Source: Trueperaceae bacterium
Lineage (GTDB): Bacteria > Deinococcota > Deinococci > Deinococcales > Trueperaceae
Direction of reading: 5' to 3'
Assembly (NCBI GenBank): GCA_965213925.1
Contig: OZ243927.1
Coordinates: 2,688,001-2,752,000 of the forward strand
DNA length: 64,000 nucleotides
Shown: one piece after another, positions 2,248 through 24,149 of the stretch
Layout: each line of letters starts with the position of its first letter
Position numbering within the stretch: position 1 is the stretch's first letter
Position numbers and translations under genes: made by a program
The notes under the pieces: generated by a model
What the model saw: only the letters and a program-made list of their open reading frames with translations
Database searches by the model: none
Told to the model about the DNA's origin: nothing

Positions 2248-2279
2248 TTCTGCAACTGACGCGCGCGACTGCCGCACAA
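2248..2279. repeat. dif-like site 1: TTCTGCAACTGA-CGCGCGCG-ACTGCCGCACAA
   Basis: Member of a 30-32 bp arm/core/arm family seen at most module boundaries between 2 and 24 kb. Confidence 0.75.
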
Positions 2280-2338
2280 CGGCCCAGGCGGAGCAGGGTC
2301 ATGCGACACACTTCGCGGCTTAAATTCAAGGCTCAGGT

Positions 2339-4048
2339 TTAGGTGTCGAAGCGCACGGTGATCTCGGCTGGTTCAGGTCTCTTTGCAACTTCAAACCGGA
2401 GAGACGGCTGCTCGTTTAAGCCCATCTTCAGCGTCAGCTCCGACACCTTGGCGAGTTGTTCGACGGTGGGCGAAGGCTCCTTGACGGGTGCTTGGTCAAT
2501 CCACAAGGCGTACTCGCCCTGCGACACCTCGGACACCCAGGGGAAGATGTGCGGCACCTTTTTTGCCTCTCTTGTCAGCGCGCTCATGACGCGGTGCCAC
2601 TTGGCTTCGCCGGGCGAACTCACCTCAGCCCACACGAGTTCGCCTGGCGTCGCGCTCTGCGCGCCGAGCTTGAAGGGAACGCGGAAGCGGTAATAATCCT
2701 CCTTGCTAGCGGCTTCATCTCCCTTCGCGGGATAGCGTACGCTCAACTGGCCCTTAGGCGTTTTGAGGGTCGTTTTCAAGCTGGTGATCGCGTTGCCCCT
2801 GATCTTGCGCGCCCGCTCGCTCAGGACCGACATGAGACCGGTGTAGAGGGAGAGGTCAAGTTGGGGCGTCTCTAAACCGTAGGGTGTGTAGCGGTGGACG
2901 GTGGCGTAGTGGCGACGCCAACTCGCTTTTACTTTGAGCTTATTCAGGTACGCCGCATCCTCCGGGGCAAGCGCGTCTAGGGGACTCAGCGAGAGACCTT
3001 CTGCACCGCCGGTAGCCAAGAGTGACTTAGGAACATGAGGCTCAGGGGAACTCGCCGCTTCCAACATGTCCATTATCGTCTCGGGGTTATTTGTCGTCTT
3101 ACAGACCTCGAGCCAGTTCCGAAAAACCGCTAAGCCGTACTCCTCCTCAGCCTGACCCATCACGTTGGCGTAGCGCCAAGGTCCGTCATCTAACCTGAAG
3201 GCGATGAACTTGTAGCCATCGATGACCTCCCAAGGTCGTGCCTGGAAAAAGCTTGCAGCAGCTTTGAAAAACGCCTTGACCTCGGGCTCGAGGTAGTGGA
3301 CGAAGTAGCTCGGCGTCGGCTCGGGGGTGAGGGCTTGTTCAAGCGCCTCTAATGCCTCGTTCGCGGCGTTGACGTCGCCTACTGCAACGCTTATACCTAA
3401 CGTCTCGAGGTCTGTCAGCGCATTCCTCATCGAGGGATCAGCTACGCGCAAGGTGTGAGGACGGGCGCTCGGTAGCCCTTGAGGAGGTTGGGCACAGGCG
3501 CTCGTAACGAGTTCGGTGAGTTCGGCACGACCCAGAGGCTCTGAATGGATGAGAAAGCTCCGGATTAATCCCTGAGAGGTCGCGACCAGCCCGAGGTGTC
3601 CGAGCGCAGGCTTTTCCTTGTCATCAAGAAAGTAGGTCGCAGCAGCTTGTGTCACGAGCCACGTCTCTTCGACTTGCGGCAGTCCCCTAATTTCCTCGAG
3701 GCTCAGTTCTTGTGGCTCATACTGCGCCATCGCGTCGCGGTGAAGCGCCCAAGGGATCGCGCCGAGACCTTCGCCCATCCACAGGGCGGTATCGACAGGT
3801 ACGCTGTCGACGCTAAAGCGTTTGACCTCGAGGAGATTGAGCGCGACCTCCTCGAGCGCCTCCTCGGTAGTGACAAGGTCAGCCAGCCACAGGTTGTCGG
3901 TGGCACAGTATCCCATCGTCAGCTCTAAAGCGAGCACTTGGTCTTCAAGATGGAGTCCGAGTGTAGCCTGGCGGAACTCAAAAGAACGCCCGCATTCCGG
4001 GCACACTGGCAGAGGGAAACGTGCCCAGAGCAAGCGGTCGGTCGGCAT
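2339..4048 (-). CDS. Conserved hypothetical protein (N-terminal CPEC zinc-ribbon-like motif; DUF6930/DUF7309-like core)
   Basis: Long ORF with the segment FFKAAASFFQARPW...VMGQAEEEYGLAVF. Start re-placed to ATG 4048, which has TACAAT 6 nt upstream (leaderless). Confidence 0.65.
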   Translation of the reverse strand: MPTDRLLWARFPLPVCPECGRSFEFRQATLGLHLEDQVLALELTMGYCATDNLWLADLVTTEEALEEVALNLLEVKRFSVDSVPVDTALWMGEGLGAIPWALHRDAMAQYEPQELSLEEIRGLPQVEETWLVTQAAATYFLDDKEKPALGHLGLVATSQGLIRSFLIHSEPLGRAELTELVTSACAQPPQGLPSARPHTLRVADPSMRNALTDLETLGISVAVGDVNAANEALEALEQALTPEPTPSYFVHYLEPEVKAFFKAAASFFQARPWEVIDGYKFIAFRLDDGPWRYANVMGQAEEEYGLAVFRNWLEVCKTTNNPETIMDMLEAASSPEPHVPKSLLATGGAEGLSLSPLDALAPEDAAYLNKLKVKASWRRHYATVHRYTPYGLETPQLDLSLYTGLMSVLSERARKIRGNAITSLKTTLKTPKGQLSVRYPAKGDEAASKEDYYRFRVPFKLGAQSATPGELVWAEVSSPGEAKWHRVMSALTREAKKVPHIFPWVSEVSQGEYALWIDQAPVKEPSPTVEQLAKVSELTLKMGLNEQPSLRFEVAKRPEPAEITVRFDT

Positions 4049-4107
4049 AGCTGCATTGTACGCCATGAGACCGTGCGCAGCGATTAGACGAGGTGCCGAG
4101 CAGGGGC

Positions 4108-4137
4108 TTCTGCTCCTAAAGCGCGCAACTCGCACCG
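4108..4137. repeat. Degenerate dif-like site 2: TTCTGCTCCTAA-AGCGCG-CAACTCGCACCG
   Basis: Partial match to the arm/core/arm family, located between two genes. Confidence 0.45.
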
Positions 4138-4158
4138 AAGCCTTACAAAGTCTTCGGC

Positions 4159-4680
4159 TCAAGCCTCTTCCGGCTCGGTGACGTTCGCCAACCATGCCTT
4201 GGCGCTGCCCTCTGCGCCTCCCACCACCGACAAGCTGCCGTCCGTCTCGAGCACCACCGCCCCGACCTGCTCGAGCGATTTTTGCCCACTTGCTCGGACT
4301 GCTGCTCGAATTTCTTCTTTGGTGACACGTGTACGCTTTAGGCTCGACTCTAGGAAACGCTGCTTGTGATAAAGCAGCGTCGGCTCTCCCTTAACGAGCC
4401 CCTGGAAGCGTTTTGAACGTACCGACAGGTAGGTAATGATGAACTGGCCAAAGATGAGCACAGCTAACGCCGCGACGCTCTCGGCGAGTGCCACATCCTT
4501 ACTCAAGAGCGTACTCGCCAGCACCGATCCTAGAGCGACCGTGACGATGAAGTCGAAGGCGTTGAGCTTCGAGAGCGTCCTTTTGCCCGACACTCGCAGC
4601 ATCAGTAGGAGAGTGAGGTAGGCGAGCGGGCCGACCAGCAGCACGCGCCCTATGTCCGCCCAGGAGCTAAAGAAAATCAT
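4159..4680 (-). CDS. DUF421/YetF family membrane protein
   Basis: Motifs LRVSGKRTLSKLNAFDFIVTVALGS and VVLETDGSLSVV; TACACT 6 nt upstream of ATG. Confidence 0.9.
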   Translation of the reverse strand: MIFFSSWADIGRVLLVGPLAYLTLLLMLRVSGKRTLSKLNAFDFIVTVALGSVLASTLLSKDVALAESVAALAVLIFGQFIITYLSVRSKRFQGLVKGEPTLLYHKQRFLESSLKRTRVTKEEIRAAVRASGQKSLEQVGAVVLETDGSLSVVGGAEGSAKAWLANVTEPEEA

Positions 4681-4782
4681 TTGACCAGTGTAACAGCCTT
4701 GTACCGGCAGAGCTTTTGCTTTATTTGGTGCTACACGGCTTAATATATAGCAAGGAAATCAAGTTGCAAGTTGAGGAGCGGT

Positions 4783-4814
4783 ATCTGCAATTAACGCATG
4801 CGTCAGCTGCCAAA
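4783..4814. repeat. dif-like site 3: ATCTGCAATTAA-CGCATGCG-TCAGCTGCCAAA
   Basis: Arm/core/arm family; both arms are X type. Confidence 0.7.
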
Positions 4815-4912
4815 AGGCTCCCAGCCCCTCTCCTCACAGCTCAGGTCACGCTGTGCGCTATAGTGCGGCGAATAGGCGTACAACGACTCGTACATGATTC
4901 CGGAGGGAAGCC

Positions 4913-5887
4913 ATGAAAGCGGTGGTGTACACAGACTACGGACCCCCCGAAGTGCTCCGGCTCGAGGAGGTAGAAAAACCCGCCCCTAAAGACGACGAAG
5001 TTCTGGTCAAGGTTCACGCGGCGGCTGCGAATCCGCTCGACTGGCACTTCATGAGGGGTACGCCGCTCCCGTTCCGCCTTGTTTTTGGATTCCGCAGACC
5101 GAAGAACACGTTTCTCGGGGCGGACATCGCGGGGCACGTCGAAGCGGTTGGCAGCGGGGCGACACAGTTTCAGCCCGGTGATGAGGTGTTCGGTGACGTG
5201 AGCGGCAGCGGGTTGGGCGGCTTTGCCGAGTACGTCTGTGCCCGCGAAGAGACCTTAGCCCTGAAGCCGAGTACCTTATCCTTTGAAGAGGCGGCGGCGG
5301 TCCCAGTGGCAGCTATCACCGCGCTACAGGGGCTTCGCGACAAGGGACAGATTCGGTCCGGGCAGCAGGTGCTGGTCAACGGCGCCTCGGGCGGGGTGGG
5401 CACCTTTGTGGTGCAGCTCGCCAAACATTTCGGGGCCGAGGTCACCGGCGTGTGCAGCACGCGGAATCTGGAGCTGGTGCGCTCCATCGGGGCGGACAGA
5501 GTAGTCGACTACACGAGAGAGGACTTCACCAAAAGCGGGCAGCCGTACGACCTGATCCTCGACGCGGTGGGGAACTGTTCGGTCTCGGACTACGAGCGTG
5601 CCTTAGGTCCCCAAGGAAGATGTGTCATCGTCGGCTTTACCACCCTAACTCATCTGCTCCAGGTTGCCTTGTTGGGGGCGTGGGTATCTAGGAGGGGGCG
5701 GAAGAAGATCGGTGTTATGGGAGCGGCGAAACCGAACCAGACGGACCTGGTTTTCATCAAAGAACTTCTCGAGGTCGGCAAAGTCGCCCCCGTCATAGAC
5801 AGGACCTACCCGTTAAGTGAGACGGCTGAAGCTATCAGATATCTCGAAAAAGGGCACGCTCGGGGAAAAGTTGTCATCGACATCTGA
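4913..5887 (+). CDS. NAD(P)-dependent MDR oxidoreductase (zeta-crystallin/quinone oxidoreductase-like)
   Basis: Motifs AAANPLD, LVNGASGGVG and GHARGKVV; RBS GGAGGG. Confidence 0.92.
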   Translation: MKAVVYTDYGPPEVLRLEEVEKPAPKDDEVLVKVHAAAANPLDWHFMRGTPLPFRLVFGFRRPKNTFLGADIAGHVEAVGSGATQFQPGDEVFGDVSGSGLGGFAEYVCAREETLALKPSTLSFEEAAAVPVAAITALQGLRDKGQIRSGQQVLVNGASGGVGTFVVQLAKHFGAEVTGVCSTRNLELVRSIGADRVVDYTREDFTKSGQPYDLILDAVGNCSVSDYERALGPQGRCVIVGFTTLTHLLQVALLGAWVSRRGRKKIGVMGAAKPNQTDLVFIKELLEVGKVAPVIDRTYPLSETAEAIRYLEKGHARGKVVIDI

Positions 5888-5915
5888 CCCTCTCAGCGCT
5901 CCTGAACTCGGACCG

Positions 5916-5947
5916 TTGTGCGTGAGACGCGCGCGTTAGTTGCGCAA
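5916..5947. repeat. dif-like site 4: TTGTGCGTGAGA-CGCGCGCG-TTAGTTGCGCAA
   Basis: Arm/core/arm family; left boundary of the glycan locus. Confidence 0.8.
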
Positions 5948-5980
5948 AAGCCGAGCTTTACTGGACTACAACCAAACAGC

Positions 5981-6931
5981 TTAGGCATGGCGCAACCTCA
6001 GAACGATGTCCTGAGGGTAATTTCCGAAAGCGCGTCCAAAGAGGTTAAGGCCGCCGATAAAACGTGCGTCCGCCTCCACGCCGATACGAACTGAAATATA
6101 GTCGTGTGCGCCTATATTGAGATCGTCGAGGGTGACGCTCGAGACTTTGAGCCCGTCAACTAGGCTGTAATCACGGTTGACCTGCCAGACCTTAAGGAGT
6201 CCATACTGTGAGTTTCGGCTCTCCCACCATGAAGGGGTAAGCTTCCCCCGCTGCCCCCCGAAGTCCGCCGGGCTCGTCCAGGTTCCCACTTTAACGCCGC
6301 CTATCCACACGGAGATATCCGAGGGCCAATCATCGTGGTGCATAGGGGCTTCTGAGCAGACCTCAAAGCTCAGACTCAGGCTCTCTAACGTCGCTTTCGG
6401 CGGTAAGCGGTTGGGGAAGCGGTACTCGACATAACCTTGGTGAAACCATAGAAGCTGCGCTTGGGCGCGGCCCGTTTCATAGAACGAGGCGGGATCATCG
6501 AGCAGCCCGATGAGACCTGTTTGGCTCGCCAAGCCGCAGGTCGGGGTGACTTGACAGTCAACGAAAGCGCCAACCGGAGTCGAGAGTTCGGTAAAGTCGT
6601 CCTCTTGCCCCTTAACTTTGGGAAATTGGAGTAGCAGCGTGTCATAAGCTCTCGTACAGACCTTCTGCGAGCCGCGTGTCGCAGGTCTATGTTCGGTGAG
6701 GAGCAGCCCCGCCTCCTCCAAAACAGTGATATGCATGTTGGCTGTCGAGATGGGCAGCTCCAACGCCTGCGCGATCTCGCTGACGTTGAGCAGTTGATCA
6801 CCTAACAGGTGGAGGATGCGCAAGCGCGTCTCTGACGCTACCGCTTTGAGCGTACGGTAGGTCTCGCTATCTTCCGGGTCGCCCTGCAAGGAGAGGCCGC
6901 GTGGGTAGAGTTCGGGTTCGGCTAGGACCAT
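5981..6931 (-). CDS. ArsR-type HTH transcriptional regulator with C-terminal sensor domain (COG4189-like)
   Basis: HTH LKAVASETRLRILHLL...LEEAGLL; C-terminal motifs WPSDI, WTSPADFGG and SQYGLLK; divergent from the glycan operon. Confidence 0.88.
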   Translation of the reverse strand: MVLAEPELYPRGLSLQGDPEDSETYRTLKAVASETRLRILHLLGDQLLNVSEIAQALELPISTANMHITVLEEAGLLLTEHRPATRGSQKVCTRAYDTLLLQFPKVKGQEDDFTELSTPVGAFVDCQVTPTCGLASQTGLIGLLDDPASFYETGRAQAQLLWFHQGYVEYRFPNRLPPKATLESLSLSFEVCSEAPMHHDDWPSDISVWIGGVKVGTWTSPADFGGQRGKLTPSWWESRNSQYGLLKVWQVNRDYSLVDGLKVSSVTLDDLNIGAHDYISVRIGVEADARFIGGLNLFGRAFGNYPQDIVLRLRHA

Positions 6932-7256
6932 GCTGTTTACCTCGTTATCTTTTAGAAAAAGCTCGATAACCCCACCCTTTTCTTACAGCTCAATATAACA
7001 TAAAAGAGGTGTTGATTCGTCTCCCGTTTGCCACCTCAGCTTGTGACCGTTGATCGAACTTAGACTAAACAGTTGAGTTGGAGACTAGCAAGGCATATCT
7101 ATAACGGTTTTATCGCTACCGAAAATAGAAGAAGATGTTACGCCGTTGTACCCTCCACGAGAAAAGACAGGTTGAAGTCGAAGTGACGCTGTTATATGGT
7201 CAACCTTGTAATAAAACACATTTACAAGAAACATAGCTGCTGAGAGGAGTGATACC

Positions 7257-9053
7257 TTGGCTACTTTAGACCGAGTTCTCGAGCAAAACGAAGAGGAGCA
7301 GGTGAGCGCGTTTAGCTACCCCAGGCCCCGATTCGTTCGCAACCTGTGGAGACCGCTAGACGGTGAATGGTCATTTTCAACGAGCCAGGTTCAAACGAGC
7401 GCTGAGGTGAGTTGGCAGGGGTCAATCAGGGTGCCTTATCCACCCGAGGCGGCGCTTTCAGGCGTGAACGACCAGACGTTTCACCCGGTGGTCTGGTACC
7501 GGCGCAGCTTTACGGTTCCCAATGACTGGCGCGATAAGCGGATCATCCTCCACTTCGGCGCGGTGGACTACAGCGCGCAGGTGTGGGTCAACGGTCAGCT
7601 CGTTATGAGCCACGAAGGGGGGCACACGCCCTTCTCCACCGACGTCACCGATGTGTTGAGGGAAGGTGAGCAAGAGGTCGTTGCGAGGGCTGAGGACGAC
7701 CCTTCGGAGATGAGCAAGCCGCGCGGCAAGCAGGACTGGCAGAGGGACCCTCACCGGATATGGTATACACGCACCACCGGCATCTGGCAGAGCGTGTGGC
7801 TCGAGCCCGTTACACCTGCCTACCTCTTAAGCGCCCGCTTCACCCCGGACCTGGCGAGCTACGCCGTACTGAGCGAGATCAGTGTAGTCGGGGACGCCTC
7901 AGATTTAAGCCTCGAGCTGGCCTTCAAGTTAGGCGATGAGCGACTCGCCGCCGACCGCTGGCAGCTCACCAGCAGCCATATCGCCCGTACAGTTCACTTA
8001 GGGGTCAGCGGCTTTGACGACCTGGAACGCTTTATCTGGAGCCCGGAACACCCTAACCTCATTGACATCACCCTCAAGCTCTACCAGGGGGAGACCCTGC
8101 TCGACGAGGTGAGGAGCTACACCGGTTTGCGCTCGGTTGAGGCGAGGGACGGCAAGTTCTTCCTTAACCACCGCCCCTACTTTTTGCGCCTGGCCCTCGA
8201 CCAGGGCTACTGGGATGAGGGTTTGCTGGCCGCGCCCAGCGGCGAAGCGCTCAAACGTGATGTCGAACTCGCCAAGGCGATGGGCTTTAACGGCGTGCGT
8301 AAGCACCAGAAGGTTGAGGACCCGCGCTACCTGTACTGGGCCGACAAACTGGGACTGCTCGTCTGGGAGGAGTTGCCGAGCGCCTACGCCTTCTCCCCTC
8401 GAGCGGTGCAGCGCCTGACGAGGGAGTGGCTCGAGGTGCTTGAGCGCGACGACAGCCACCCTTCGGTCGTCGCCTGGGTCTGCTTCAACGAGTCGTGGGG
8501 CGTGCCCGACTTGCCTCACTCGGCGGCGCAGCGTCACGCAGTGCAAGCGCTTTACCACCTAAGCAAAGCGCTCGACCCTCAGCGCCTGGTAGTAGGCAAC
8601 GACGGTTGGGAACACGTAGTCAGCGACCTCTTAACCGTGCACGACTACAGCCCGAAACCCGCTACCTTAGAGGAGCGTTACGGCGGCGCTGAGCGCAGCC
8701 GCCACACCAGCCGTCAAATCCTGGAGCACGGGCGAGCCGTGGTCTTGCCGGAGATGACTCAGAGCGACCAGCCCATCATCTTGTCTGAGTTTGGCGGTAT
8801 CCGCTACAACCCGGCTGCTGAAGGCTGGGGCTACCAGCAAGTGGAGAGTGACGAGGCGCTCCTCGAGCTCTACGCCGAGATGATCAGGTCCGTGTCAGGG
8901 ACAGGGCTAGCAGGTTTTTGCTACACCCAGTTCGCCGATACCTTTCAGGAGCAAAACGGCCTGCTTTATTCGGATCGCCGCCCTAAAGTAGCGCTGGAGC
9001 GCCTTTCTCAAGCCACCCGAAATCAGGCTGAAAGCCGAGAAGGGGGTGAATGA
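7257..9053 (+). CDS. Glycoside hydrolase family 2
   Basis: Motifs LHFGAVDY, HEGGHTPF, GIWQSVWLE, acid/base FNESWG and nucleophile LSEFGG; RBS GAGAGGAG before TTG. Confidence 0.92.
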   Translation: MATLDRVLEQNEEEQVSAFSYPRPRFVRNLWRPLDGEWSFSTSQVQTSAEVSWQGSIRVPYPPEAALSGVNDQTFHPVVWYRRSFTVPNDWRDKRIILHFGAVDYSAQVWVNGQLVMSHEGGHTPFSTDVTDVLREGEQEVVARAEDDPSEMSKPRGKQDWQRDPHRIWYTRTTGIWQSVWLEPVTPAYLLSARFTPDLASYAVLSEISVVGDASDLSLELAFKLGDERLAADRWQLTSSHIARTVHLGVSGFDDLERFIWSPEHPNLIDITLKLYQGETLLDEVRSYTGLRSVEARDGKFFLNHRPYFLRLALDQGYWDEGLLAAPSGEALKRDVELAKAMGFNGVRKHQKVEDPRYLYWADKLGLLVWEELPSAYAFSPRAVQRLTREWLEVLERDDSHPSVVAWVCFNESWGVPDLPHSAAQRHAVQALYHLSKALDPQRLVVGNDGWEHVVSDLLTVHDYSPKPATLEERYGGAERSRHTSRQILEHGRAVVLPEMTQSDQPIILSEFGGIRYNPAAEGWGYQQVESDEALLELYAEMIRSVSGTGLAGFCYTQFADTFQEQNGLLYSDRRPKVALERLSQATRNQAESREGGE

Positions 9054-9119
9054 GCTTCGCTTAGATGGGGTATTAAGATTTCGTTTATAGGAAAGCGGGG
9101 AATGGGGAATATCGTGGGG

Positions 9120-10958: not shown

Positions 10959-11035
10959 CGACAGGCACCAAACTCACCAGCCAAACAAGTTACGAGTAAC
11001 GACCTTTAGTTCAATCCATGTTTTAAGGAGGAACG

Positions 11036-12325: not shown

Positions 12326-12362
12326 TTAAGCTCAGTCGTTTCGTCCGGTCGTCACGCCTATC

Positions 12363-12395: not shown

Positions 12396-12433
12396 ACCTT
12401 ATAAGCCTTGTGAAGGAAAGTTAGGTAGAATCT

Positions 12434-14241: not shown

Positions 14242-14386
14242 GGGAGAGGTGCACAAAGCGGACGTTACATGAATGTCGCTGCTGCCCAGTTCTTCTCACA
14301 TGAACTTATCCGAGTTGCCTATGTCCATCTTTACGACTCTGTGAAACTAAGGCACCGCTACATGCTGCGACCCTGAAAGGAAACCT

Positions 14387-15382: not shown

Positions 15383-16323
15383 GCCGAGCAACACGCTCCG
15401 CCCAGGTGCAGCAGCTTAGCGACATGAACCCAGTCTACGCCGGCTACCTCGCTGACCCCTTTGTACTTGCTTACCAAGGTCAGTATTATGCGTACGGTAC
15501 GGACTCCGTTTTGGACGGTCGGGTGTTCCAGGTGCTTCAGTCTCCCGACCTTATCCGCTGGACCTCTTTAGGCACAGCTTTGAAGACACTGGAGGGCGAG
15601 CCATGCGATTACTGGGCTCCTGAAGTCGCATTGAATGGTGACACCTTTTATATGTACTATTCGGTTGGCAAGGGCGATAAAGGTCATATGCTCCGCGTCG
15701 CCACCGCGAAAGCGCCGCAGGGTCCCTTCACTGACTTAGGCTTGTGCCTCACGGCAGATGAGCCTTTCGCCATCGACCCTCACCCTTTCCAGGACGACGA
15801 CGGGGCGTGGTATCTATTTTATGCGAAAGACTTTTTGGAGGGCGAGCGGGTTGGGACCGGTTTAGTGGTAGACCGTTTGGAGGGGATGACCCGCCTTGTG
15901 GGAGAGACGCGCACCGTACTGCGGGCTACCGCTGACTGGCAACTCTATAAGCGGCAGCGAAAGATGTACGGACGCACGCTGGACTGGTACACGCTTGAGG
16001 GTCCTTTTGTAGTCAAGCGTTTCGGGCGCTACTACTGCTTCTTTTCGGGCGGCAACTGGCAGAACGAAAGCTACGGCGTCTCGTACGCTGTAGCGCCGCA
16101 CCCTCTTGGTCCTTGGCGTGAGCCACATCCTGAAAGCCCTGCGCTTTTGAAGTCTGTAGAGGACGCGCTCATTGGTCCCGGACACAACTCGCTTATTGTG
16201 GGACCAGGAGATGAAGACCGCCTTGTATTTCACGCCTGGAATAGAATGCGAACTGCTCGGCAGATGTGGATCGGGCGGCTTCACTGGATGGGTGAAGAGC
16301 CAAAGCTTATTCATAGTTTATAG
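15379..16323 (+). CDS. Cytoplasmic GH43 glycoside hydrolase
   Basis: Motifs LADPF, WAPE, AIDPH, TLEGP and GPGHN; ATGA overlap with the upstream gene. Confidence 0.9.
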   Translation: MSRATRSAQVQQLSDMNPVYAGYLADPFVLAYQGQYYAYGTDSVLDGRVFQVLQSPDLIRWTSLGTALKTLEGEPCDYWAPEVALNGDTFYMYYSVGKGDKGHMLRVATAKAPQGPFTDLGLCLTADEPFAIDPHPFQDDDGAWYLFYAKDFLEGERVGTGLVVDRLEGMTRLVGETRTVLRATADWQLYKRQRKMYGRTLDWYTLEGPFVVKRFGRYYCFFSGGNWQNESYGVSYAVAPHPLGPWREPHPESPALLKSVEDALIGPGHNSLIVGPGDEDRLVFHAWNRMRTARQMWIGRLHWMGEEPKLIHSL

Positions 16324-16336
16324 GCCTTTGTAGATT

Positions 16337-16368
16337 TTGTGCAATTAACGCGCGCAACTGGCGCACAA
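16337..16368. repeat. dif-like site 5: TTGTGCAATTAA-CGCGCGCA-ACTGGCGCACAA
   Basis: Arm/core/arm family; 13 bp after the last glycan-locus stop codon. Confidence 0.8.
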
Positions 16369-16440
16369 TCATGTCCTCAATCTCTCAGCTTCACCCTTAT
16401 CCTCACAACCATGCTTTAACTAAAAAGTGTCGCCCTCTCT

Positions 16441-16487
16441 CCTACTGCGAAAGCACCTGCCGAGATAGCAGGTGCTTTCGCAGTAGG
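16441..16487. terminator. Perfect 20-bp-stem hairpin between convergent genes
   Basis: CCTACTGCGAAAGCACCTGC-N7-GCAGGTGCTTTCGCAGTAGG. Confidence 0.65.
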
Positions 16488-16495
16488 TTTGGCAT

Positions 16496-17467
16496 TTAGG
16501 GCGTGTTCAACTGCCCATACTTGAGCGCACTCTCGACATGTGCCGAGATGTCCTCATCTATGACGCGGTCGTACACGTCCCCCGACGCAGGGACGAAGCC
16601 CGCCTTCGCTAGGCTGTACTGCGCCTCATCGCCATACACGCCCCCGAGCGCGTTTTTCATGGTGAGGTCGCTGGCGCGTGCGGGGATGGCGACGCGCAGC
16701 GTTGAGACGAGAGGTTCAATGCCCTCGCCGTGCAACTGGATGAGTTCGCCTGCGTGCTCGAGCTGCGTGAGGTCGCGGTAGTCAATGATGACAAGGCCCA
16801 CGTTCTGGATATGCTTGTCGAGGCTGCTGACGTCGAATCGTTCGACGTCCAACCGGTCTAAGGCGCTAATGTACCAGCAGATCTTAGGCACCGGTTGCTG
16901 CCTGCACCAGTCGTCCGATGGGCTGCCAGGAATGGTTCTGCTCACCCCGGTTTTGCTCACCCCGGCCACGTTAAAGCCTGTCTCCGTAATGAGTTTAACC
17001 AGCGTGCCCGCGTCCATAGCGCTCACGGTTTTGGCGCTGTAGCCAAGTTTAGCGGCCCGCTCGAGGAGCACGGGTGTCGCGTAGACCGCCGCAAAGTCGA
17101 TAGCCGCCGTTATCCCGTCAAGGCGTGGGTCCGGGACTGGGTTGCCATCCTTGTCACAAAGGACGAGCTGGCAGTACCGAGAGACGAGCGGCACCTTCAC
17201 CGGCTTCCAGTCGTAAATCCGTCCAGGGTCGGGCGTATAGGACACCACGCCTGCGTTGTAAAAGGCCGCTGCTTTGGCGAGTTTGGCAGACTCGACGTAG
17301 CGAACGTCTGCCACGTGGCTGAGCGGTTCCACGAGCGAGGGGATGTCGGTCACGAGGGTGAACGCGCCGCGATACCTCTGGCTTGACAGCTCCGCCTCGG
17401 AGCTTTGGCTGCACGCAGCCAGCACGCTACTTAGGACTATAAGACCAAACAGAACAAACTTTTTCAT
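16496..17467 (-). CDS. Hypothetical lipoprotein
   Basis: Signal MKKF...VLAAC lipobox; no family recognised. Confidence 0.75.
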   Translation of the reverse strand: MKKFVLFGLIVLSSVLAACSQSSEAELSSQRYRGAFTLVTDIPSLVEPLSHVADVRYVESAKLAKAAAFYNAGVVSYTPDPGRIYDWKPVKVPLVSRYCQLVLCDKDGNPVPDPRLDGITAAIDFAAVYATPVLLERAAKLGYSAKTVSAMDAGTLVKLITETGFNVAGVSKTGVSRTIPGSPSDDWCRQQPVPKICWYISALDRLDVERFDVSSLDKHIQNVGLVIIDYRDLTQLEHAGELIQLHGEGIEPLVSTLRVAIPARASDLTMKNALGGVYGDEAQYSLAKAGFVPASGDVYDRVIDEDISAHVESALKYGQLNTP

Positions 17468-17648
17468 CTCTCTACCTTTCCGCCATTTGCGCAGGCATTC
17501 AACAGTAGGACCGAGCCTAGATATAGAACGAACGTGTAGTGCTTCATGTTTCTCCTTAAACGTGGGCTTATATGCCCTCTTCGAGGTGCGCCGCGTTTGA
17601 ACCTCGCGGTCTTAGACGCGACGCTGAACGAATGGTCGATCGGTTCTT

Positions 17649-18040
17649 CTAGCGGCAGCTGCTCGAAGCGTTGACACGTACCGGGACAGCGTCCGCGCCC
17701 ATCGAAGCGTTGTTCGAGGTGTTGCCATCACTGTTCGTGATGATCACTCCGATGTAGTAGTTGCCGCTAGGCGTGCAGACGGGGATACGAGGAAGCCCGG
17801 CGTTGACGCGCACCGAGGATTTGGGCGAGAAAGACCAGTCGAAGTAACCCGAGAGGATAGGCGTGTCGTAGGTGCTGAGGTAATCGTTCCTCGAGAGGTA
17901 TAACGTCGCATTGAAGCGGCTGCTGCGTGACGCTTTCGAGTAGTTATGAACTAGGTAGTCGAGTTTGGTGAGCCGGTCACCCGCCGTGAGGGTGCTGGGC
18001 GCAGCATTCGCGTCCAAGGCGTGAACGTCGAAACTGGCAG
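17649..18040 (-). pseudogene. C-terminal remnant of a secreted protein (CARDB/Ig-like domain)
   Basis: Motifs LYLSRND..S..D, P...PSGNYYIGVI and D.NTSNN; no credible start; abuts a fragment on the opposite strand. Confidence 0.5.
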
Positions 18041-18042
18041 GC

Positions 18043-18291
18043 GTGTTCAAAGAAGCTTTACTTTTATGGAGTGAAGCACTCGGGCTCGCAAAGTTGCGAG
18101 ACAATCGATTATGGCAAGCTTATGTTCATCACAACATCGGCGAGATGTATCTTGAAAATAGTCGAGCCGAGCCGGGCAAAGAGTATCTACAAAAGGCTAT
18201 CGAACTCTACACGCTGAGCCACGCCGAGGTGGAGGTAAGGGAGGTAAAAGCCCTACTCGTTAGTGCGAGTTTACGCCGAATTAACGCTTGA
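18043..18291 (+). pseudogene. TPR-repeat C-terminal fragment
   Basis: WQAYVHHNIGEMYLE...GKEYLQKAIELY is TPR-like; lower GC; no N-terminus. Confidence 0.5.
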
Positions 18292-18748
18292 TCCGTAAGC
18301 TTCTTTTCGGGAGGAAATATACATGAGAGTATTGATGACTTTCCTAGTAATCGTAGTGCTTTTCTCTATTATTTTGTAACGCGTATGCGTCCACGTAAAT
18401 CTACGGTTACAGGCAAAGACTCAACTGAAGACACCGCATATGGCCGTCAAGAGCGTGCACAAGACGAATCAAAGTCTTTCGAGGATTTCCCAGATAGTGT
18501 TCCGCGTGCAAGAGGTGGGGATGATAAAACATCAAAACGGAAAGAAGAGTGAGCTTTTTGATTGTCGCCGAGCGCTCTATACGGGTAAACCTGAGTACTT
18601 TAGAGTAGAAAACACCATGACGCTCGAATAATGACAACCTTCTGACTGGTCCTCGGGAACTAGCGACGCATCACAGCTTAGTTAGTTGGCAGCGAGTACG
18701 GTAGCTCTAGAGTTCGTATCTCGAACGAGGAGGATTAGGAGAACGCCC

Positions 18749-19819
18749 GTGATCGTGAACCAGCTGAGCCAGTTGCTGACCGGTAAAAGCCGCGAGGGGC
18801 AGTTCTCCGGCTCCTTTCTAGTGATCCGAAAAGAGGAAAAGCTTGTTGAAGCGGCTTACGGCTACGCGCACAAAACTTGGAGGGTGAAGAACCAAGTGAA
18901 CACCCGCTTCCGCGTCGCGTCGGTCTCCAAGTTGTTCACAGCGGTCGCTGTATTGCAGCTCATCGAAGCGGGCAAGCTGGACTTTAATACGCGCGCCGCA
19001 GCGTTTCTTGACTTAGAAGATATGGCGATACCAGCAGACGTTACGGCTTATCACCTCCTCACCATGACCTCGGGCATTGCCGACTGGTTCGATGAGTCGG
19101 GCGACCCGGAGGAGAACTGGGCCGCTCTGGTTCGCGAGCATCCGCTCTACCTCTTCCGGCGCAATGAAGACTATCTGCCCCTCTTCGTGAACAAGCCCCC
19201 GGTCGGACTCACCGGAGCGAAACACCGTTACAACAACGCGAGCTATATCTTGCTCGGCTTGATGATCGAAAAAGTTTCAGGTCTCTCTTATTTTGATTAC
19301 GTGCGGCAGCATGTCTTCGCACAAGCGCGGATGACGCGCTCAGACTTCGTAGCGCTCGATGGTGTCGAAAGGGAGGTCGCCGAAGGATATATTCCCCTTT
19401 TTGACGAGCAAGGAAAAAGGACAGGCTGGAAGAAGAACGTCTACTCAGCGACGCCAGAAGCCGCTGCGGACGGCGGCGCGACCTCGACGGCTCACGACCT
19501 ATGCCGTTTCTCGAAAGCGCTCAGGGAGGGTCGGCTCTTATCTTCCGAGATGACTCAGGTGATGTTGAGACCTAAAGTACTCGAGGACGACGCGCCCTAC
19601 CGAGGCTACACCTGGAAGTACGGCTACGGCAACCTGTTCTTATTAGACGACGCGGACCGAATTGTGCGCTGGGGTCATACGGGCGAGGAGGGCGGGATAA
19701 GCTGCCGCTTGTATCACTACCCGCAGAAAGATGTAGACATAGCGATTCTCGGCAACCGGGGCGGGTGTGCGGGCGACTTGGCGTGGGAGCTGCATGACCT
19801 CGTCACGGCGGTTCTCTAG
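18749..19819 (+). CDS. Serine hydrolase, beta-lactamase class C/AmpC-like family
   Basis: SxxK (SVSK), YxN (YNN) and GHTG motifs; AGGAG before GTG 18749. Confidence 0.88.
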   Translation: MIVNQLSQLLTGKSREGQFSGSFLVIRKEEKLVEAAYGYAHKTWRVKNQVNTRFRVASVSKLFTAVAVLQLIEAGKLDFNTRAAAFLDLEDMAIPADVTAYHLLTMTSGIADWFDESGDPEENWAALVREHPLYLFRRNEDYLPLFVNKPPVGLTGAKHRYNNASYILLGLMIEKVSGLSYFDYVRQHVFAQARMTRSDFVALDGVEREVAEGYIPLFDEQGKRTGWKKNVYSATPEAAADGGATSTAHDLCRFSKALREGRLLSSEMTQVMLRPKVLEDDAPYRGYTWKYGYGNLFLLDDADRIVRWGHTGEEGGISCRLYHYPQKDVDIAILGNRGGCAGDLAWELHDLVTAVL

Positions 19820-19909
19820 TCCGGACTTGCTTGTATCTGATTGACGCCCGGTAAGCACCTGACTTCTAGTATTCAGGACGTGACGAAAGACATTGAGAGA
19901 GGACTGTAC

Positions 19910-20866
19910 GTGACAACTCAAACCACCTCGACGCCGGGACTTCATCTTCTCGACCGCTATTGGAGACTTCTAACGCGCGTCGTCGATCTCTGCATGCTGC
20001 TCCTCGTCATGGCCGCCTTAGCCGTTGTTCTTAAGACCCTGTGGCCGACAACACTACCCTATGTGCCGACGCGCGCGACGACGCTGTTCGTCGTTGGTGT
20101 CAGCTATTTTGGCCTGTTCAACAGTCGTCTTGCCGAGGGACAAACTCTGGGCAAACGGCTGCTCGGGTGTCGGCTGGTGGACGTCCAGGGTCGGTGCATC
20201 TCGCTGAGCCGCTCGATCCTGCGCAGCGCGGTCGTTGGTCTGCCTCTACTGTTCGTCGACCTCGCATGGTCACTCAGCGCGGGAACGGTTTACGTCGGGA
20301 GCACTCCTCCCCTCATCGGCCTCTATCTACGTTGGGTCGCCTTCGCTTTGTTCGTGTTCATACTCTGGTTTGATAAGGAGGGGCGCGACGTCCACCGCTC
20401 GATCTACGACCTGTTTGTTGGGACATACGTGACTAAAAAGGACGCTACCGCGCCTTTTTCTGCCGTCTCGATCTCCTGGCGGCGTGTCGGTTTAGCCGCG
20501 CTTAGCGCTGCTATCTTCACCGGCGTCCTGCAAGAGCGGCTCTGGACTCCCCAGGCGTCGTTTACCGCAGTCCGACAGGCGGCGGCCCTCGAGCAGAGGT
20601 TGCGAAACGACGCGGACATGGAACTCCGTGAGGTTTACGTCACGACTGACGTTTACGACGAGGAAACGGCGTACGTCGAGGTCGCGCTGACGCCTACACT
20701 GCACCGGGCGTCAGCGCAAACCACTAAGAGGGTCGCCGGAGCCGTTCTCGCGGTCTATCCAGCGCTAGGGCCACGGCGCGACCTCGAGGTGCGCGTCGGC
20801 TATAGAGAGCCGCTGACCCAGGCACTAGCTCGGGTACACAGAAAGAAGCAGCCTGTCGAGGTCTAG
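19910..20866 (+). CDS. RDD family membrane protein
   Basis: Motifs WRLLTRVVD, GQTLGKRLLG and RSIYDLFVGTYV; start uncertain. Confidence 0.75.
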   Translation: MTTQTTSTPGLHLLDRYWRLLTRVVDLCMLLLVMAALAVVLKTLWPTTLPYVPTRATTLFVVGVSYFGLFNSRLAEGQTLGKRLLGCRLVDVQGRCISLSRSILRSAVVGLPLLFVDLAWSLSAGTVYVGSTPPLIGLYLRWVAFALFVFILWFDKEGRDVHRSIYDLFVGTYVTKKDATAPFSAVSISWRRVGLAALSAAIFTGVLQERLWTPQASFTAVRQAAALEQRLRNDADMELREVYVTTDVYDEETAYVEVALTPTLHRASAQTTKRVAGAVLAVYPALGPRRDLEVRVGYREPLTQALARVHRKKQPVEV

Positions 20867-20877
20867 CGGGAGCAGCC

Positions 20878-21291
20878 TCAGTCATCACGGCGAAGCGCCT
20901 CACTGAGCTCGAGTCTATTCACTTTCAGCTCGTCGTCACTCGCCCTCGAAACGGTCCCCTCCAGCATCTTCTTTGAGGTGAGGTCGTGGTAGTCGTGCAT
21001 CGGGATCAGGTGTAGGTGGGCGTGGGGGATGTCCATGCCCGCGACGAGCATGCCGACTTTGAGGGGTTTGAAGACGCGCCGCTGTGCTTTAGCGATTCGC
21101 TTCGCCAGCCGCGTTATGTCGAGGTGGACGTCGTCGCCTAGGTCGAAGAAGTCCGGCTCATGCTCCTTAGGGATGACGAGAACGTGACCCGGGCGGATCG
21201 GGCTGACGTCCGAGAAGGCGACCGAGTACGCGCCGACGGCTAAAAGTTCTTCGGGCTCGTTAACTAACTGGCAAAAGGGACAAGGTTTCAT
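20878..21291 (-). CDS. HIT family nucleotide-binding hydrolase
   Basis: Motifs CPFC, GHVLVIPK and the histidine triad HAHLH. Confidence 0.9.
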   Translation of the reverse strand: MKPCPFCQLVNEPEELLAVGAYSVAFSDVSPIRPGHVLVIPKEHEPDFFDLGDDVHLDITRLAKRIAKAQRRVFKPLKVGMLVAGMDIPHAHLHLIPMHDYHDLTSKKMLEGTVSRASDDELKVNRLELSEALRRDD

Positions 21292-21607
21292 GGACTTCGC
21301 CTGACCACCGTCATACCGCAACCTATGGGGTAGCTTCCTGAGAGTATTTGTAGTTGCCGCACCTTGTAAAAGTAGCGTGAGTAGATGAGCATCCCTATTG
21401 ATTACTCAAGAAATGATGCTCTTTTGCTTAATATGCTTGGAGCGATCTCGCTGTGCAAGTCTTTAGACTCTACTACTTTATGTCGCTGCGTCGCTACGGT
21501 ATTACTTTGTCTAAAGAGAGGCAGCCTAGTTGTTTGAGTCATGCACGCAGCGCCCCTGTAACAAAATGTTGGGTAGTGCGGCGAACCGAGCCTATCGTGG
21601 CATAACT

Positions 21608-21637
21608 TTTGTGGAGTGACGCGTGTCTCTCGCAGAA
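21608..21637. repeat. dif-like site 6: TTTGTGGAGTGA-CGCGTG-TCTCTCGCAGAA
   Basis: Arm/core/arm family with a 6-bp core; upstream of the amidase. Confidence 0.6.
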
Positions 21638-21720
21638 GACTAAGAAAAGCGGCGAGCCTTCGGAGCTGTAGGCATGTCGAGCGCGTTGCCGCCTTGCCAG
21701 AAGGGTGTAATACTCGGCGT

Positions 21721-23028
21721 ATGCTCACGGATGAGATCACTTTCGCCCCCGCCGCCACCCTCGCTAGGGCGATAAGGCTTAAAGACCTCTCCTCCGTAGA
21801 GGTGGTCGAGGTCTACCTCAAGCGAACCGAGGTGGTGAACCCTAGCCTCAACGCCGTCGTGCAGCTCGCCGCGGAAGCCGCCCTGAGCGACGCGCGGCTG
21901 GCCGACGAAGCCCTCGCGCGAGGAGATACGACCGGCCCTTTGCACGGCGTCCCTTTCACCGTTAAAGACTGGCTCGAGACGAAGGGAGTGGTATGCACCG
22001 CGGGCGAAGAGAGGCACCGAAGGTACGTTCCGAAGCATGACGCCACCGCCGTGGCGCGGCTGCGCGAGGCCGGCGGCATCTTCCTCGGCAAGACCAACAT
22101 TACCGTCAACAACCCCGTCTACGGGCGCACCAATAACCCCTACAACCTGGCGTACACGCCAGCGGGTAGCAGCAGCGGCGAGGCGGCTATCATCGCGGCG
22201 GGCGGCTCACCTTTGGGGTTGGGCAGCGACTCGGGCGGGAGCATCCGCCAGCCCGCTCACAACTGCGGCATCGCCGGGTTCAAGCCGAGCACGGGCAGGG
22301 TCCCCCTCACAGGGCACCTGCCGCGCATCAACCCCATGAGCGACCCCCGCACGACGATTGGACCGATGGCGCGCTACGTAGAAGACCTGGCGCTCGCGCT
22401 GCCCGTCATCAGCGGCGTGGACTGGCAGGACGCCAGCGTCGTTCCCGTGCCGCTCGGCCACTGGCAGGACGTCGGGGTAGAGCGCCTGCGCGTGGCCTTC
22501 TACACGAGACACGAGCACGCCGAGCCGACCCCGGAGACGGACGAGGTGGTGAGAAGGGCGGCGCGAGCCCTCGCCCGGCTCGAGGTCGAGGAGGCGCGGC
22601 CCGAGCGGGTCGAGGAAGCGTACGCGATCACCCGCGCCTATTGGCAGCGGCCCGAGTCGGAATCGTGGGACGCGTGGGCGCCCGACGGTGAGGCGAAGCT
22701 GAGCGGCGAGGAGGTCGAGCGACACCTGTTCGAGTGGGACCGGTTCCGGCGCAGCCTTATCCGCTTCATGGCGCACTACGACGTCATCTTGACGCCTGTC
22801 GCCGAAAAACCTGCCGTGCCCCATGGCGAGTCGGAAGGCGGCATCCCCTACACACTGCCCTACAGCCTCACGGGCTACCCCTGCGCGGTGGTGCGCGGCG
22901 GCAGCTCGCCCGAGGGGCTGCCGATCGGGGTGCAGGTCGTGGCGAGGCCGTGGCGCGATGACGTGGCGCTCGCGGTCGCGCACTATCTCGAGCAGGCTCT
23001 GGGGGGATACCGAAAGCCTGCGATCTAG
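21721..23028 (+). CDS. Amidase signature family protein
   Basis: Lys-cisSer-Ser triad motifs PFTVKD, GSSSGEAA and GSDSGGSIR. Confidence 0.9.
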   Translation: MLTDEITFAPAATLARAIRLKDLSSVEVVEVYLKRTEVVNPSLNAVVQLAAEAALSDARLADEALARGDTTGPLHGVPFTVKDWLETKGVVCTAGEERHRRYVPKHDATAVARLREAGGIFLGKTNITVNNPVYGRTNNPYNLAYTPAGSSSGEAAIIAAGGSPLGLGSDSGGSIRQPAHNCGIAGFKPSTGRVPLTGHLPRINPMSDPRTTIGPMARYVEDLALALPVISGVDWQDASVVPVPLGHWQDVGVERLRVAFYTRHEHAEPTPETDEVVRRAARALARLEVEEARPERVEEAYAITRAYWQRPESESWDAWAPDGEAKLSGEEVERHLFEWDRFRRSLIRFMAHYDVILTPVAEKPAVPHGESEGGIPYTLPYSLTGYPCAVVRGGSSPEGLPIGVQVVARPWRDDVALAVAHYLEQALGGYRKPAI

Positions 23029-23135
23029 AGGCGCGCTTGTTACGCCCACGCCCTGGGCTATCGGTCTTGTCATCACTTTACTTACCTACGTACCAGGACG
23101 ATTGCGCGCCTGACCGGGTCGTCGCTGCTTAAGCG

Positions 23136-23167
23136 GTGTGCGAGAGACGCGCGCGTCTCTCGCATTG
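23136..23167. repeat. dif-like site 7: GTGTGCGAGAGA-CGCGCGCG-TCTCTCGCATTG (perfect 26-bp palindrome 23139-23164)
   Basis: Arm/core/arm family; both arms are Y type; between the amidase and the TA pair. Confidence 0.75.
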
Positions 23168-23215
23168 CGCTTTAACACCCCTTGAGCTATCTTCCGGTTG
23201 GCATAGCAATAAGTG

Positions 23216-23248
23216 GGCAATTATGCTATCAACTATGGTATAATTGCC
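23216..23248 (+). promoter_or_regulatory. TA promoter (extended -10 TGnTATAAT) overlapped by an inverted-repeat operator
   Basis: GGCAATTATGCTAT-N5-ATGGTATAATTGCC, 12/14 inverted match, covering TATAAT at 23239-23244. Confidence 0.6.
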
Positions 23249-23260
23249 AAGAGGTGCAAG

Positions 23261-23653
23261 ATGACCGTTCAACAGTTGGTTCAAAGCAACAGCACGGAGC
23301 GCATTGCAGCAGTTCGCGAAGGGCTCTCCTTCGAGAGCTTCGTCACGTTGCGTGAAGCCTTAGGCGTGAGTACGGATGAGCTCGCTCAGCTTTTGGGCAT
23401 CCCCCGTCGCACGCTGACCAAGCGGCAGAGCGAGGGTGTCTTTAAGCTCGCTGAGAGCAACGCCATCAGCCGGGTTGCTCGTGTGTACAAAGAAGCGCTC
23501 GACTTTTTCGATGACGAGGTGGATACCCTAAGGTGGCTTAAGACACCCTTGCCTGCGCTCGGCGGAACGCCTCTGGACCTGCTCGATACCGACCCCGGCG
23601 CAGATGCGGTGAGCACGCTACTGGCTCAACTCGCCTGGGGCATCTATCCTTGA
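23261..23653 (+). CDS. Antitoxin Xre/MbcA/ParS family
   Basis: HTH (LGIPRRTL) plus C-terminal WLKTPLPALGGTPLDLLDT. Confidence 0.88.
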   Translation: MTVQQLVQSNSTERIAAVREGLSFESFVTLREALGVSTDELAQLLGIPRRTLTKRQSEGVFKLAESNAISRVARVYKEALDFFDDEVDTLRWLKTPLPALGGTPLDLLDTDPGADAVSTLLAQLAWGIYP

Positions 23654-24105
23654 TCGTCGCTTGGCGGCTCACGCATGAGCGCTTCAAAGATCAGGCAACG
23701 AGTGGTAACGGCGGGCTGTTCGCACCAGGGCGCTGGCACAGCCAAGGAAGATATATTGTGTATAGCTCGAGCAGCTTGGCGCTTGCCACACTCGAGCTGT
23801 TCGTGAATTTGCAGAACAGGCGGCAGCTCGCTCACTATGTCAAGAGCCAAATAGAGATTCCTGAAGCGCTTACCGAAATCCTAGAAGAGGCTGCTCTAAG
23901 GACGTTTTTAAGGGCTCCTGACCAGTTTGATAGCCGCAGCTACGGCGACTCGTGGTTCGCTGGGGAGCGAAGCTGCGTACTCCGGGTTCCGAGTCGGGTG
24001 GTACCGCAGGAATGGAATTACCTCATTAACCCATTGCACGCAGACTTCGAGAAGATCACCGCCTCGACCAACCTATACGAGGTGGATGAGCGCCTCTTGC
24101 CATAA
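23650..24105 (+). CDS. RES-domain toxin (NAD+-consuming, ParT/MbcT-like)
   Basis: Motifs WRL, GRWH, YSSSSLALATLE, VPSRVVP and NYLINPLH; 4-bp overlap with the antitoxin. Confidence 0.9.
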   Translation: MIVAWRLTHERFKDQATSGNGGLFAPGRWHSQGRYIVYSSSSLALATLELFVNLQNRRQLAHYVKSQIEIPEALTEILEEAALRTFLRAPDQFDSRSYGDSWFAGERSCVLRVPSRVVPQEWNYLINPLHADFEKITASTNLYEVDERLLP

Positions 24106-24119
24106 AGCAGTAATCAGAG

Positions 24120-24149
24120 TTGTGCACCGAACGCGCGTTAGCTGCATAA
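24120..24149. repeat. dif-like site 8: TTGTGCACCGAA-CGCGCG-TTAGCTGCATAA
   Basis: Arm/core/arm family; 14 bp after the toxin stop codon. Confidence 0.7.

Follow-up and report, generated by a model that had tools for sequence, protein, structure and literature searches.

In a 64,000-nucleotide stretch of DNA from a Trueperaceae bacterium (phylum Deinococcota), referred to here as the window, eight short intergenic sites lie between positions 2248 and 24149 and delimit seven gene modules, among them a complete glycan-use locus and a toxin-antitoxin pair. The sites are probably core sites of an Xer-related tyrosine recombinase, with the modules assembled by site-specific recombination. A first-pass annotation of the window, made from the sequence alone, had listed eight two-armed sites and read them as dif/pdif-like. 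Each of the eight was recovered in the sequence (w1 to w8 in Table 1), and the part of that reading which concerns tyrosine-recombinase core-site behaviour stood: the sites are rare, clustered and composed of two oriented arms, they bound functional units including the toxin-antitoxin pair, and in a related locus (L020) they flank an Xer-like gene. Membership in the XerCD dif/pdif class did not stand, owing to the layout of the sites and their non-alternating orientation.

Six of the sites are 32 bp in length, with 12-bp arms around an 8-bp centre, and in the two that begin at 21608 and 24120 the centre measures 6 bp, for a total length of 30 bp. If each arm is drawn one base longer, the six 32-bp sites become 13+6+13 instead. 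When the sites were placed in a common orientation, the two arm types proposed earlier, X and Y, were borne out. The 13-nt consensus of arm X is TTCTGCAACTAAC, and that of arm Y, read inward, is TTGTGCGCGAGAC; the outer TT.TGC is common to both arms, whereas the inner six bases are unlike. The central region (6-8 bp) is CG-rich, and the arms adjoin it with an AAC end and a GTT start. Arm X was distinct from arm Y in nine of 11 sites (eight from the window and three from L020); w6 was unclear, and w7, the sole perfect palindrome among the window sites, consists of two Y arms. The 8-bp centre CGCGCGCG is common to the sites at 2248, 5916 and 23136. In window order, the orientations of the sites are +,+,+,-,+,+,palindrome,-.

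A chance origin of the sites was rejected by scans with two matrices. A dyad matrix trained on the window sites themselves, and thus circular, gave scores of 17.2-33.2 for seven of the eight sites, versus 13.9 for the best unrelated position in the window; the eighth site, at 4108, labelled degenerate in the first pass, scored 13.7, at noise level. The stronger test used an independent matrix of 32 columns, derived from the three L020 sites only. Its top six positions in the whole window were the sites at 5916, 16337, 2248, 4783, 4108 and 23136 (scores of 37.0-20.2), the next position scoring 15.6, and in fifty Markov-1 random windows it reached a maximum of 19.5 and a mean of 14.3. The two 30-bp sites, whose length the ungapped L020 matrix cannot fit, scored 10.0 and 9.7. 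With both matrices, no further sites were detected in positions 24150-64000 of the window, and none was detected inside the mixed module at 16369-21607.

All eight sites are situated between genes, as had been proposed, that at 4108 on condition that the gene in open reading frame (ORF) 2339-4195 starts at an internal methionine near 4066; this start is likely, because the first 43 residues of the ORF are Arg-rich. By our own count, ∼14.5% of the region 2000-24300 is intergenic, and the probability of an intergenic position for eight of eight sites by chance is ∼2e-7. The contents ascribed to the seven intervals in the first pass agree with the Pfam results, and the short gaps past stop codons noted there measured 13 and 14 nt (stops at 16323 and 24105). 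The edges of the glycan-use module coincide exactly with the inverted sites w4 and w5. The gene pairs that flank the eight sites are convergent in three cases, divergent in two (4783 and 21608) and co-directional in three. The positions of the sites are thus indifferent to the logic of transcription, which is evidence against operators and terminators. It is unlikely that the sites serve as operators or architectural sites of a non-recombinase protein, such as a regulator, a nucleoid protein or a ParB-like centromere protein with parS-type clusters. The sites are dyad-like, intergenic and clustered within ∼22 kb, some parS sites cluster similarly, and the sites at 4783 and 21608 lie in divergent promoter regions, all of which would suit such a protein; however, three sites lie between convergent genes, two lie 13-14 nt past stop codons, and the two arms are consistently unlike, which is unusual for a homodimeric helix-turn-helix site.

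The related locus, L020, belongs to the 4.50-Mb chromosome of a Trueperaceae metagenome-assembled genome and carries three sites within 3.2 kb, with dyad matrix scores of 37.6, 31.6 and 21.3. The order of its features, as determined with Pfam, is a Tn3-type transposase fragment, site a, an Xre-RES pair, site b, a YhcG-type nuclease gene together with a convergent tyrosine recombinase gene, site c and a gene for a giant DUF11 repeat protein. Site w4 of the window and site c of L020 differ at only 2 of 32 positions (90% identity over 40 nt), and their flanks are unrelated. No synteny was detected between the window and L020, which have nothing in common except the site itself, and no homology was found between their Xre-RES pairs, each of which is flanked by sites. 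The site has therefore been conserved while all of its surroundings differ. In both Xre-RES pairs a site lies 45-95 nt upstream of the antitoxin gene, where an operator might also be expected; against an operator or a parS-type site, the L020 sites flank a recombinase module, and no partition gene was detected with Pfam in the window or in L020. Two further features of L020 were observed. The Tn3-type transposase gene (5972-6610, minus strand) is truncated, with only the 212 C-terminal residues left, and the truncation point coincides exactly with the start of site a and of the toxin-antitoxin module; the region 10592-20028 (plus strand) encodes a 2487-aa DUF11 repeat protein plus a second DUF11 protein.

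The L020 recombinase (304 aa) aligns with E. coli XerD (1a0p) over residues 33-297 (E 6e-35). In this alignment the catalytic motifs ATG.RVSE, GKGNKER, PHVLRH and LGH...Y are kept, and their R-K-HxxR-H-Y residues presumably have the roles known for this family. The NCBIfam models for XerC, XerD and archaeal XerA gave 209, 203 and 194 bits, respectively, all below their cut-offs, and the integron-integrase model TIGR02249 gave 117 bits in two pieces, against a cut-off of 265. Since every model score falls below its cut-off, the enzyme is considered Xer-like yet neither a canonical XerC/XerD nor an IntI. Its relatives in a large protein collection comprise ∼40 clusters with 71-91% identity, nearly all of 296 aa, three of them being encoded on contigs 4.3-4.6 Mb in length. 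These are followed, at 52-59% identity, by proteins of Alicyclobacillus, Sulfobacillus and other Bacilli. The window itself encodes a single tyrosine recombinase (59964-61385, minus strand), a 473-aa protein with an N-terminal sigma-70 region-4-like helix-turn-helix, whose gene lies between ddl and a transaldolase gene; its score with TIGR02249 was 53 bits. There is no support for this protein as the cognate enzyme, as it is encoded 36 kb away, shares 25% identity with the L020 recombinase and lacks a site in its vicinity.

An Xer-like gene near the sites would also be accounted for if these were polar replication-fork barriers near the terminus, i.e., Ter-like sites for a protein of the Tus/RTP type. 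Like Ter sites, those described here are asymmetric, ∼30 bp long, clustered and oriented, and the Xer-like gene adjoins them in L020. The explanation is nevertheless barely credible: the orientations in the window (+,+,+,-,+,+,palindrome,-) do not form two opposed groups, the sites tightly bracket individual genes, and the GC skew of the 64 kb provides no terminus signal.

The rarity of the sites was assessed with a strict pattern, which matches four of the eight window sites, in 185,579 species genomes (596 Gb), which evidently do not include the source genome, since no locus had several matches. The pattern matched 22 loci in scattered phyla, once each, close to the chance estimate of ∼26, and the 4.50-Mb chromosome of L020 holds one such match. 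The dyad matrix, applied to all 22 matched loci (349,552 nt), revealed additional sites solely in L020. A dispersed repeat was rejected on the basis of these two scans. In a comparison of single-strand folding with shuffled sequences, 10 of the 11 sites folded no better than the shuffles (z -1.29 to +1.30), and the site at 23136 alone stood out (z -3.98), with a 14-bp stem. On these grounds a hairpin, terminator or attC-like fold was rejected. A terminator scan of 1900-6100 yielded none at the sites and five in all, versus 4.4 expected, and no Rfam match was found in positions 1-26000 of the window at E values up to 1. It is consequently very improbable that the sites represent a small selfish repeat spread by transposition, such as a repetitive extragenic palindrome or bacterial interspersed mosaic element (REP/BIME) or a miniature inverted-repeat transposable element (MITE), or intrinsic-terminator-like palindromes kept for RNA 3' ends. 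The sites are indeed short intergenic inverted repeats, though imperfect, they often follow a stop codon closely, and the site at 23136 is a perfect palindrome. Against this stand their folding, the absence of T-tracts and of any Rfam family, and their copy number: no copy in the remaining 40 kb of sequence in the window, one strict match in the 4.5-Mb relative, no multi-copy family in the 185,579 species genomes, and only chance-level fragments on plasmids. The last result derives from a comparison of L020 site c with 72,556 PLSDB plasmids, in which 13 records gave fragments of 17-23 nt at E >=3. An integration target in a tRNA gene was rejected, as no tRNA occurs anywhere in the window, as was a plasmid origin, since positions 1-25000 gave only four weak partial PLSDB matches. 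Weak matches to Deinococcus plasmids, the Trueperaceae origin of L020 and the nearest Atlas cluster of the Ddl encoded in the window lend indirect support to the assignment to the Deinococcota.

Table 1. Recombination-type sites and the modules between them in the window, with the three sites of L020 (positions in L020 are those of that locus)
Feature	Position	Strand	Description	Dyad matrix score	L020 matrix score	Remarks
site w1	2248..2279	+	32 bp (12+8+12); X arm left, Y arm right; core CGCGCGCG	30.1	32.6	flanking genes convergent
module 1	2280..4107	-	single gene, ORF 2339-4195			probable start near 4066; weak DUF7309 match
site w2	4108..4139	+	32 bp (12+8+12), degenerate	13.7	20.8	above random maximum of 19.5
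module 2	4140..4782	-	YetF/DUF421 membrane protein gene 4159-4680			Pfam
site w3	4783..4814	+	32 bp (12+8+12); core CGCATGCG	27.8	21.1	divergent promoter region
module 3	4815..5915	+	zinc-type alcohol dehydrogenase/MDR gene 4913-5887			Pfam
site w4	5916..5947	-	32 bp (12+8+12)		37.0	inverted relative to w1-w3
module 4	5948..16336	+	10.4-kb glycan-use locus: ArsR-type helix-turn-helix regulator, GH2, GH43, solute-binding protein, two permeases, two GH43			
site w5	16337..16368	+	32 bp (12+8+12)		34.7	13 nt past stop codon
module 5	16369..21607	.	mixed: putative lipoprotein, small ORFs, beta-lactamase-fold protein, RDD protein, HIT protein			
site w6	21608..21637	+	30 bp (12+6+12); 6-bp core CGCGTG	17.2		weakest strong site; 27.2 in scan covering 22 loci
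module 6	21638..23135	+	amidase gene, ORF 21616-23028			real start probably downstream
site w7	23136..23167	.	32 bp (12+8+12); perfect palindrome, two Y arms; core CGCGCGCG		20.2	fold z -3.98
module 7	23168..24119	+	Xre-family antitoxin 23213-23653, RES toxin 23650-24105			
site w8	24120..24149	-	30 bp (12+6+12); 6-bp core	33.2		14 nt past RES stop codon
L020 site a	6783-6814	+				found with dyad matrix
L020 site b	7853-7884	+				found with dyad matrix; 17 nt past RES stop
L020 site c	9997-10028	+				found with dyad matrix; 39 bp upstream of recombinase start

Some additional features of the window were recorded. The dyad matrix gave a borderline score of 16.7 at 21574-21605. One 12-mer occurs twice: its copy at 4861-4872 lies 47 nt downstream of w3 and precedes the gene that starts at 4913, and its copy at 21574-21585 precedes both w6, by 23 nt, and the amidase gene. 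When one mismatch was permitted, two matches were reached in 5 of 100 shuffles, and the repeat may be due to chance or may be a shared promoter element. Outside the array, two full-length, divergent glutamine synthetase genes (48092-49501, minus strand, and 49853-51373, plus strand) are located beside a branched-chain amino-acid ABC transporter operon.

A parallel family of sites was encountered on plasmids of the Bacillales. The best tblastn matches of the L020 recombinase among plasmids had 41% identity and were located on Bacillales plasmids. In Sporosarcina psychrophila pSP10-266k, sites of a related family lie ∼76 nt upstream and ∼36 nt downstream of the homologue, within an array of nine sites (8.6 kb) that separates NUDIX-merA-merR, an IS110 transposase, a peptidase, the recombinase, a GNAT gene and small ORFs. 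When the plasmid loci were screened de novo for dyads and k-mers, the output was too noisy, and this Sporosarcina array alone was conspicuous. The Bacillales site has symmetric arms, with the consensus TTATTCAACTAAC, and an asymmetric spacer of 6-7 nt. The family was detected at 202 places in 104 plasmid records, with up to 17 per plasmid, mostly in Bacillus, Staphylococcus, Peribacillus and Cytobacillus, and at least 8 of the 17 plasmid records that best match the recombinase are also among the site records listed. On Mesobacillus and Peribacillus plasmids, the sites punctuate 40-kb runs of small, co-oriented genes and are themselves all in one orientation, opposite to that of the genes. These runs look like an integron-like cassette array. 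In the open-access literature searched, no description was found of such runs or of either site family, that of the window or that of the Bacillales; one set of matches, judged by title and term count, appeared to consist of oligonucleotides in articles on unrelated topics. Comparison of arm X (TTCTGCAACTAAC) with the Bacillales arm revealed agreement at 11 of 13 consensus positions and a column correlation of 0.77, which none of 5000 column permutations reached. That arm X matches the arms of sites co-occurring with a homologous recombinase in another phylum is a further argument against operators or parS-type sites, and a likeness to plasmid cassette-array sites has no place in a model of replication-fork barriers.

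The Bacillales arrays comprise L024/L025 (NZ_CP146247.1, 12.6-21.2 kb), L029 (NZ_CP033045.1, 99-139 kb) and L030 (NZ_CP017081.1, 45-88 kb), with sites of ∼33 bp and spacers of two types, CTGCCCC-like and GCACCC-like. In several sites the two arms seem to covary (e.g., TTCCAC...GTGGAA versus TTCAAC...GTTGAA), which hints at a folded form. Genes for IS110-family transposases are found between or beside plasmid sites (L024 2986-4188; L023 2088-3362 and 9618-10853), recalling the insertion sequences that target attC or pdif sites. In the Mesobacillus array, positions 18574-18753 of L029 encode a 60-residue C-terminal fragment that is 50% identical to the L020 recombinase and is probably a remnant of the recombinase gene of the array. 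The Mesobacillus recombinase encoded at 298-1212 of L029 was rejected as a member of the L020 clade, with 22% identity. The same array contains a purine riboswitch (L029 18243-18344, minus strand; 85 bits, Rfam) upstream of a nucleoside hydrolase/permease pair, and at least some cassettes thus bring their own regulation. Sites of the Bacillales type also occur on small plasmids: a single one just downstream of cat in pC194 (L032, NC_002013.1 1958-1983), one at the 3' end of dfrK in small staphylococcal plasmids including pKKS966 (L033, NC_015171.1; two places per record), and one at 638-671, after an ASCH-domain gene, in pSP10-6k (L034), a MobV plasmid of 6 kb from the Sporosarcina strain that also carries pSP10-266k. 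It is as if single cassettes with a Bacillales-type site had been moved onto small plasmids.

Several observations weigh against the sites being recombinase core sites that serve to assemble modules. The gene for the recombinase lies 39 bp from a site in L020, but no gene of its clade is present within the 64-kb window, nor was a recombinase pseudogene found within the window array; the association of the site with the recombinase within this lineage is based on one locus, L020. The L020 recombinase looks vertically inherited, more as a housekeeping gene than as cargo, and despite its ∼40 clusters of close relatives the strict pattern found the site in one species genome. On the plasmid side, arm Y resembles the Bacillales arm weakly (column correlations of 0.28-0.31), no array lies within 6-10 kb in four (L023, L026, L027 and L028) of the five plasmid loci that have a homologous recombinase at their centre, and B. 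mycoides plasmids keep the recombinase gene and a single site far apart. Moreover, the Bacillales sites are symmetric, with a conserved asymmetric spacer and a fixed orientation relative to the genes, features that the window sites lack. Because of these differences in symmetry, spacer and orientation, the two site families are considered relatives and not identical.

For core sites of an Xer-related recombinase, we infer the shuffling and movement of modules, as well as binding and the positions of cleavage, along the following lines. The site would act as double-stranded DNA, in which two protein-binding arms of 12-13 bp flank a centre of 6-8 bp, the presumed location of strand cleavage and exchange. 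An orthologue of the 304-aa L020 recombinase, encoded outside the window, is the most likely cognate enzyme. A palindromic centre cannot confer direction, which must therefore be set by the difference between the arms. Arm X is a plausible strong arm of an L020-type enzyme, for which arm Y may be a weaker one; alternatively, arm Y may belong to a second recombinase. Sites with identical centres, e.g., those at 2248, 5916 and 23136 (CGCGCGCG), would be partners. Circular modules with one site would integrate into a resident site, and recombination between directly repeated sites (2248/4108/4783 and 16337/21608) would release the intervening DNA as circles, which could then insert again at any resident site. 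The inverted pair 5916/16337 would invert the 10.4-kb glycan segment between them, and the toxin-antitoxin module may stabilise the island. Two variants of this scheme are conceivable. In one, the site would be the lineage's own dimer-resolution (dif-type) site with a single linked recombinase, as in XerS/difSL, and the extra copies would derive from elements that exploit it, in the style of integrative mobile elements exploiting Xer (IMEX) or of dif modules; in the other, the sites would belong to a dedicated module system. A Deinococcus dif sequence was not found in PMC9764985 or PMC3025954, the latter of which names neither Deinococcus nor Thermus.

A broader proposal, which we entertain with some doubt, is that the window and plasmid sites belong to an undescribed cross-phylum family, defined by a clade of Xer-related recombinases and by sites of ∼32-35 bp with a common arm near TT.T.CAACTAAC, which would form module islands in Trueperaceae chromosomes and integron-like, co-oriented cassette arrays on Bacillales plasmids. 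Single cassettes with a common-arm site may have escaped onto small plasmids. If true, such a family would add a third general system of gene capture to integrons and the dif modules of Acinetobacter, the only ones for which site-delimited module arrays are well documented. An island in the Deinococcota with the same logic, but with a different site and recombinase, would show that this strategy arose or spread more widely than thought, and the island described here would have relatives in the apparently undescribed cassette arrays of Bacillales plasmids. The 32-bp site and its candidate enzyme would provide a direct handle on the trade of accessory genes, sugar-use loci and toxin-antitoxin pairs in little-studied lineages. 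Should the site prove to be the dif of the lineage, a new single-recombinase system of chromosome-dimer resolution would be defined.

Among known systems, members of the Tn3 family with the tyrosine resolvase TnpI carry an internal resolution site and toxin-antitoxin passengers, and the L020 order of site, recombinase, toxin-antitoxin pair, site and Tn3 transposase fragment is reminiscent of a resolution module next to tnpA. In contrast to these transposons, L020 retains only a C-terminal fragment of the transposase, the window lacks any transposase, and its eight sites, which separate unrelated operons, do not constitute a resolution site. Integrons likewise contain arrays of gene units between recombinase sites, including toxin-antitoxin cassettes, and the Bacillales arrays are co-oriented like cassette arrays. 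Integron core sites feature AAC and GTT, which the AAC/GTT of the window arms next to the centre resembles. The attC sites of integrons are folded and 57-141 nt in length, whereas the sites described here are 30-32 bp and lack hairpin potential; in addition, the L020 recombinase falls short of the IntI model, the orientation of genes in the window is mixed, and there is no attI/Pc arrangement.

Single-recombinase Xer systems offer another parallel. The xerS gene immediately adjoins difSL (PMC5357621), and elements that integrate at a dif-type site, e.g., LME-1 in Legionella, leave extra copies of the site (PMC9765430). As in XerS/difSL, XerH/difH and XerL/dif, the recombinase gene of L020 lies beside a site, the arms are unequal and the recombinase looks conserved across relatives. 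Those systems, however, have one site per replicon, at the terminus and under the control of FtsK, as opposed to eight in 22 kb of the window and three in 3.2 kb of L020, and the window sites are without the gene. Given their multiple copies, most of the window sites are presumably not the dimer-resolution site itself.

Acinetobacter pdif modules reside on Rep_3/OrfX plasmids. The dif site consists of two 11-bp arms and a 6-bp central region, 28 bp in total (PMC5357621, PMC13141974), and the Acinetobacter modules, which often contain toxin-antitoxin pairs, are separated by pdif sites, each with an XerC arm, a 6-bp spacer and an XerD arm, whose orientation must alternate (PMC13141974). Compared with these descriptions, the window sites differ in layout (12/13+6/8+12/13, with a palindromic CG centre, versus 11+6+11), and C/D alternation is observed neither in the window (+,+,+,-,+,+,palindrome,-) nor in L020 (+,+,+). 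The L020 enzyme is one Xer-like recombinase encoded beside the site, as opposed to the host XerC plus XerD, and the phylum differs. The suggestion in the first-pass annotation of an undescribed chromosomal module system has to be tempered, since chromosomal dif-module islands in Acinetobacter were reported in 2026 (PMC12907356). With the pdif modules (PMC13141974, PMC12907356), the Trueperaceae island shares two-armed sites between every module, cargo of single genes, operons and toxin-antitoxin pairs, an orientation conferred by unlike arms, and clustering in an island.

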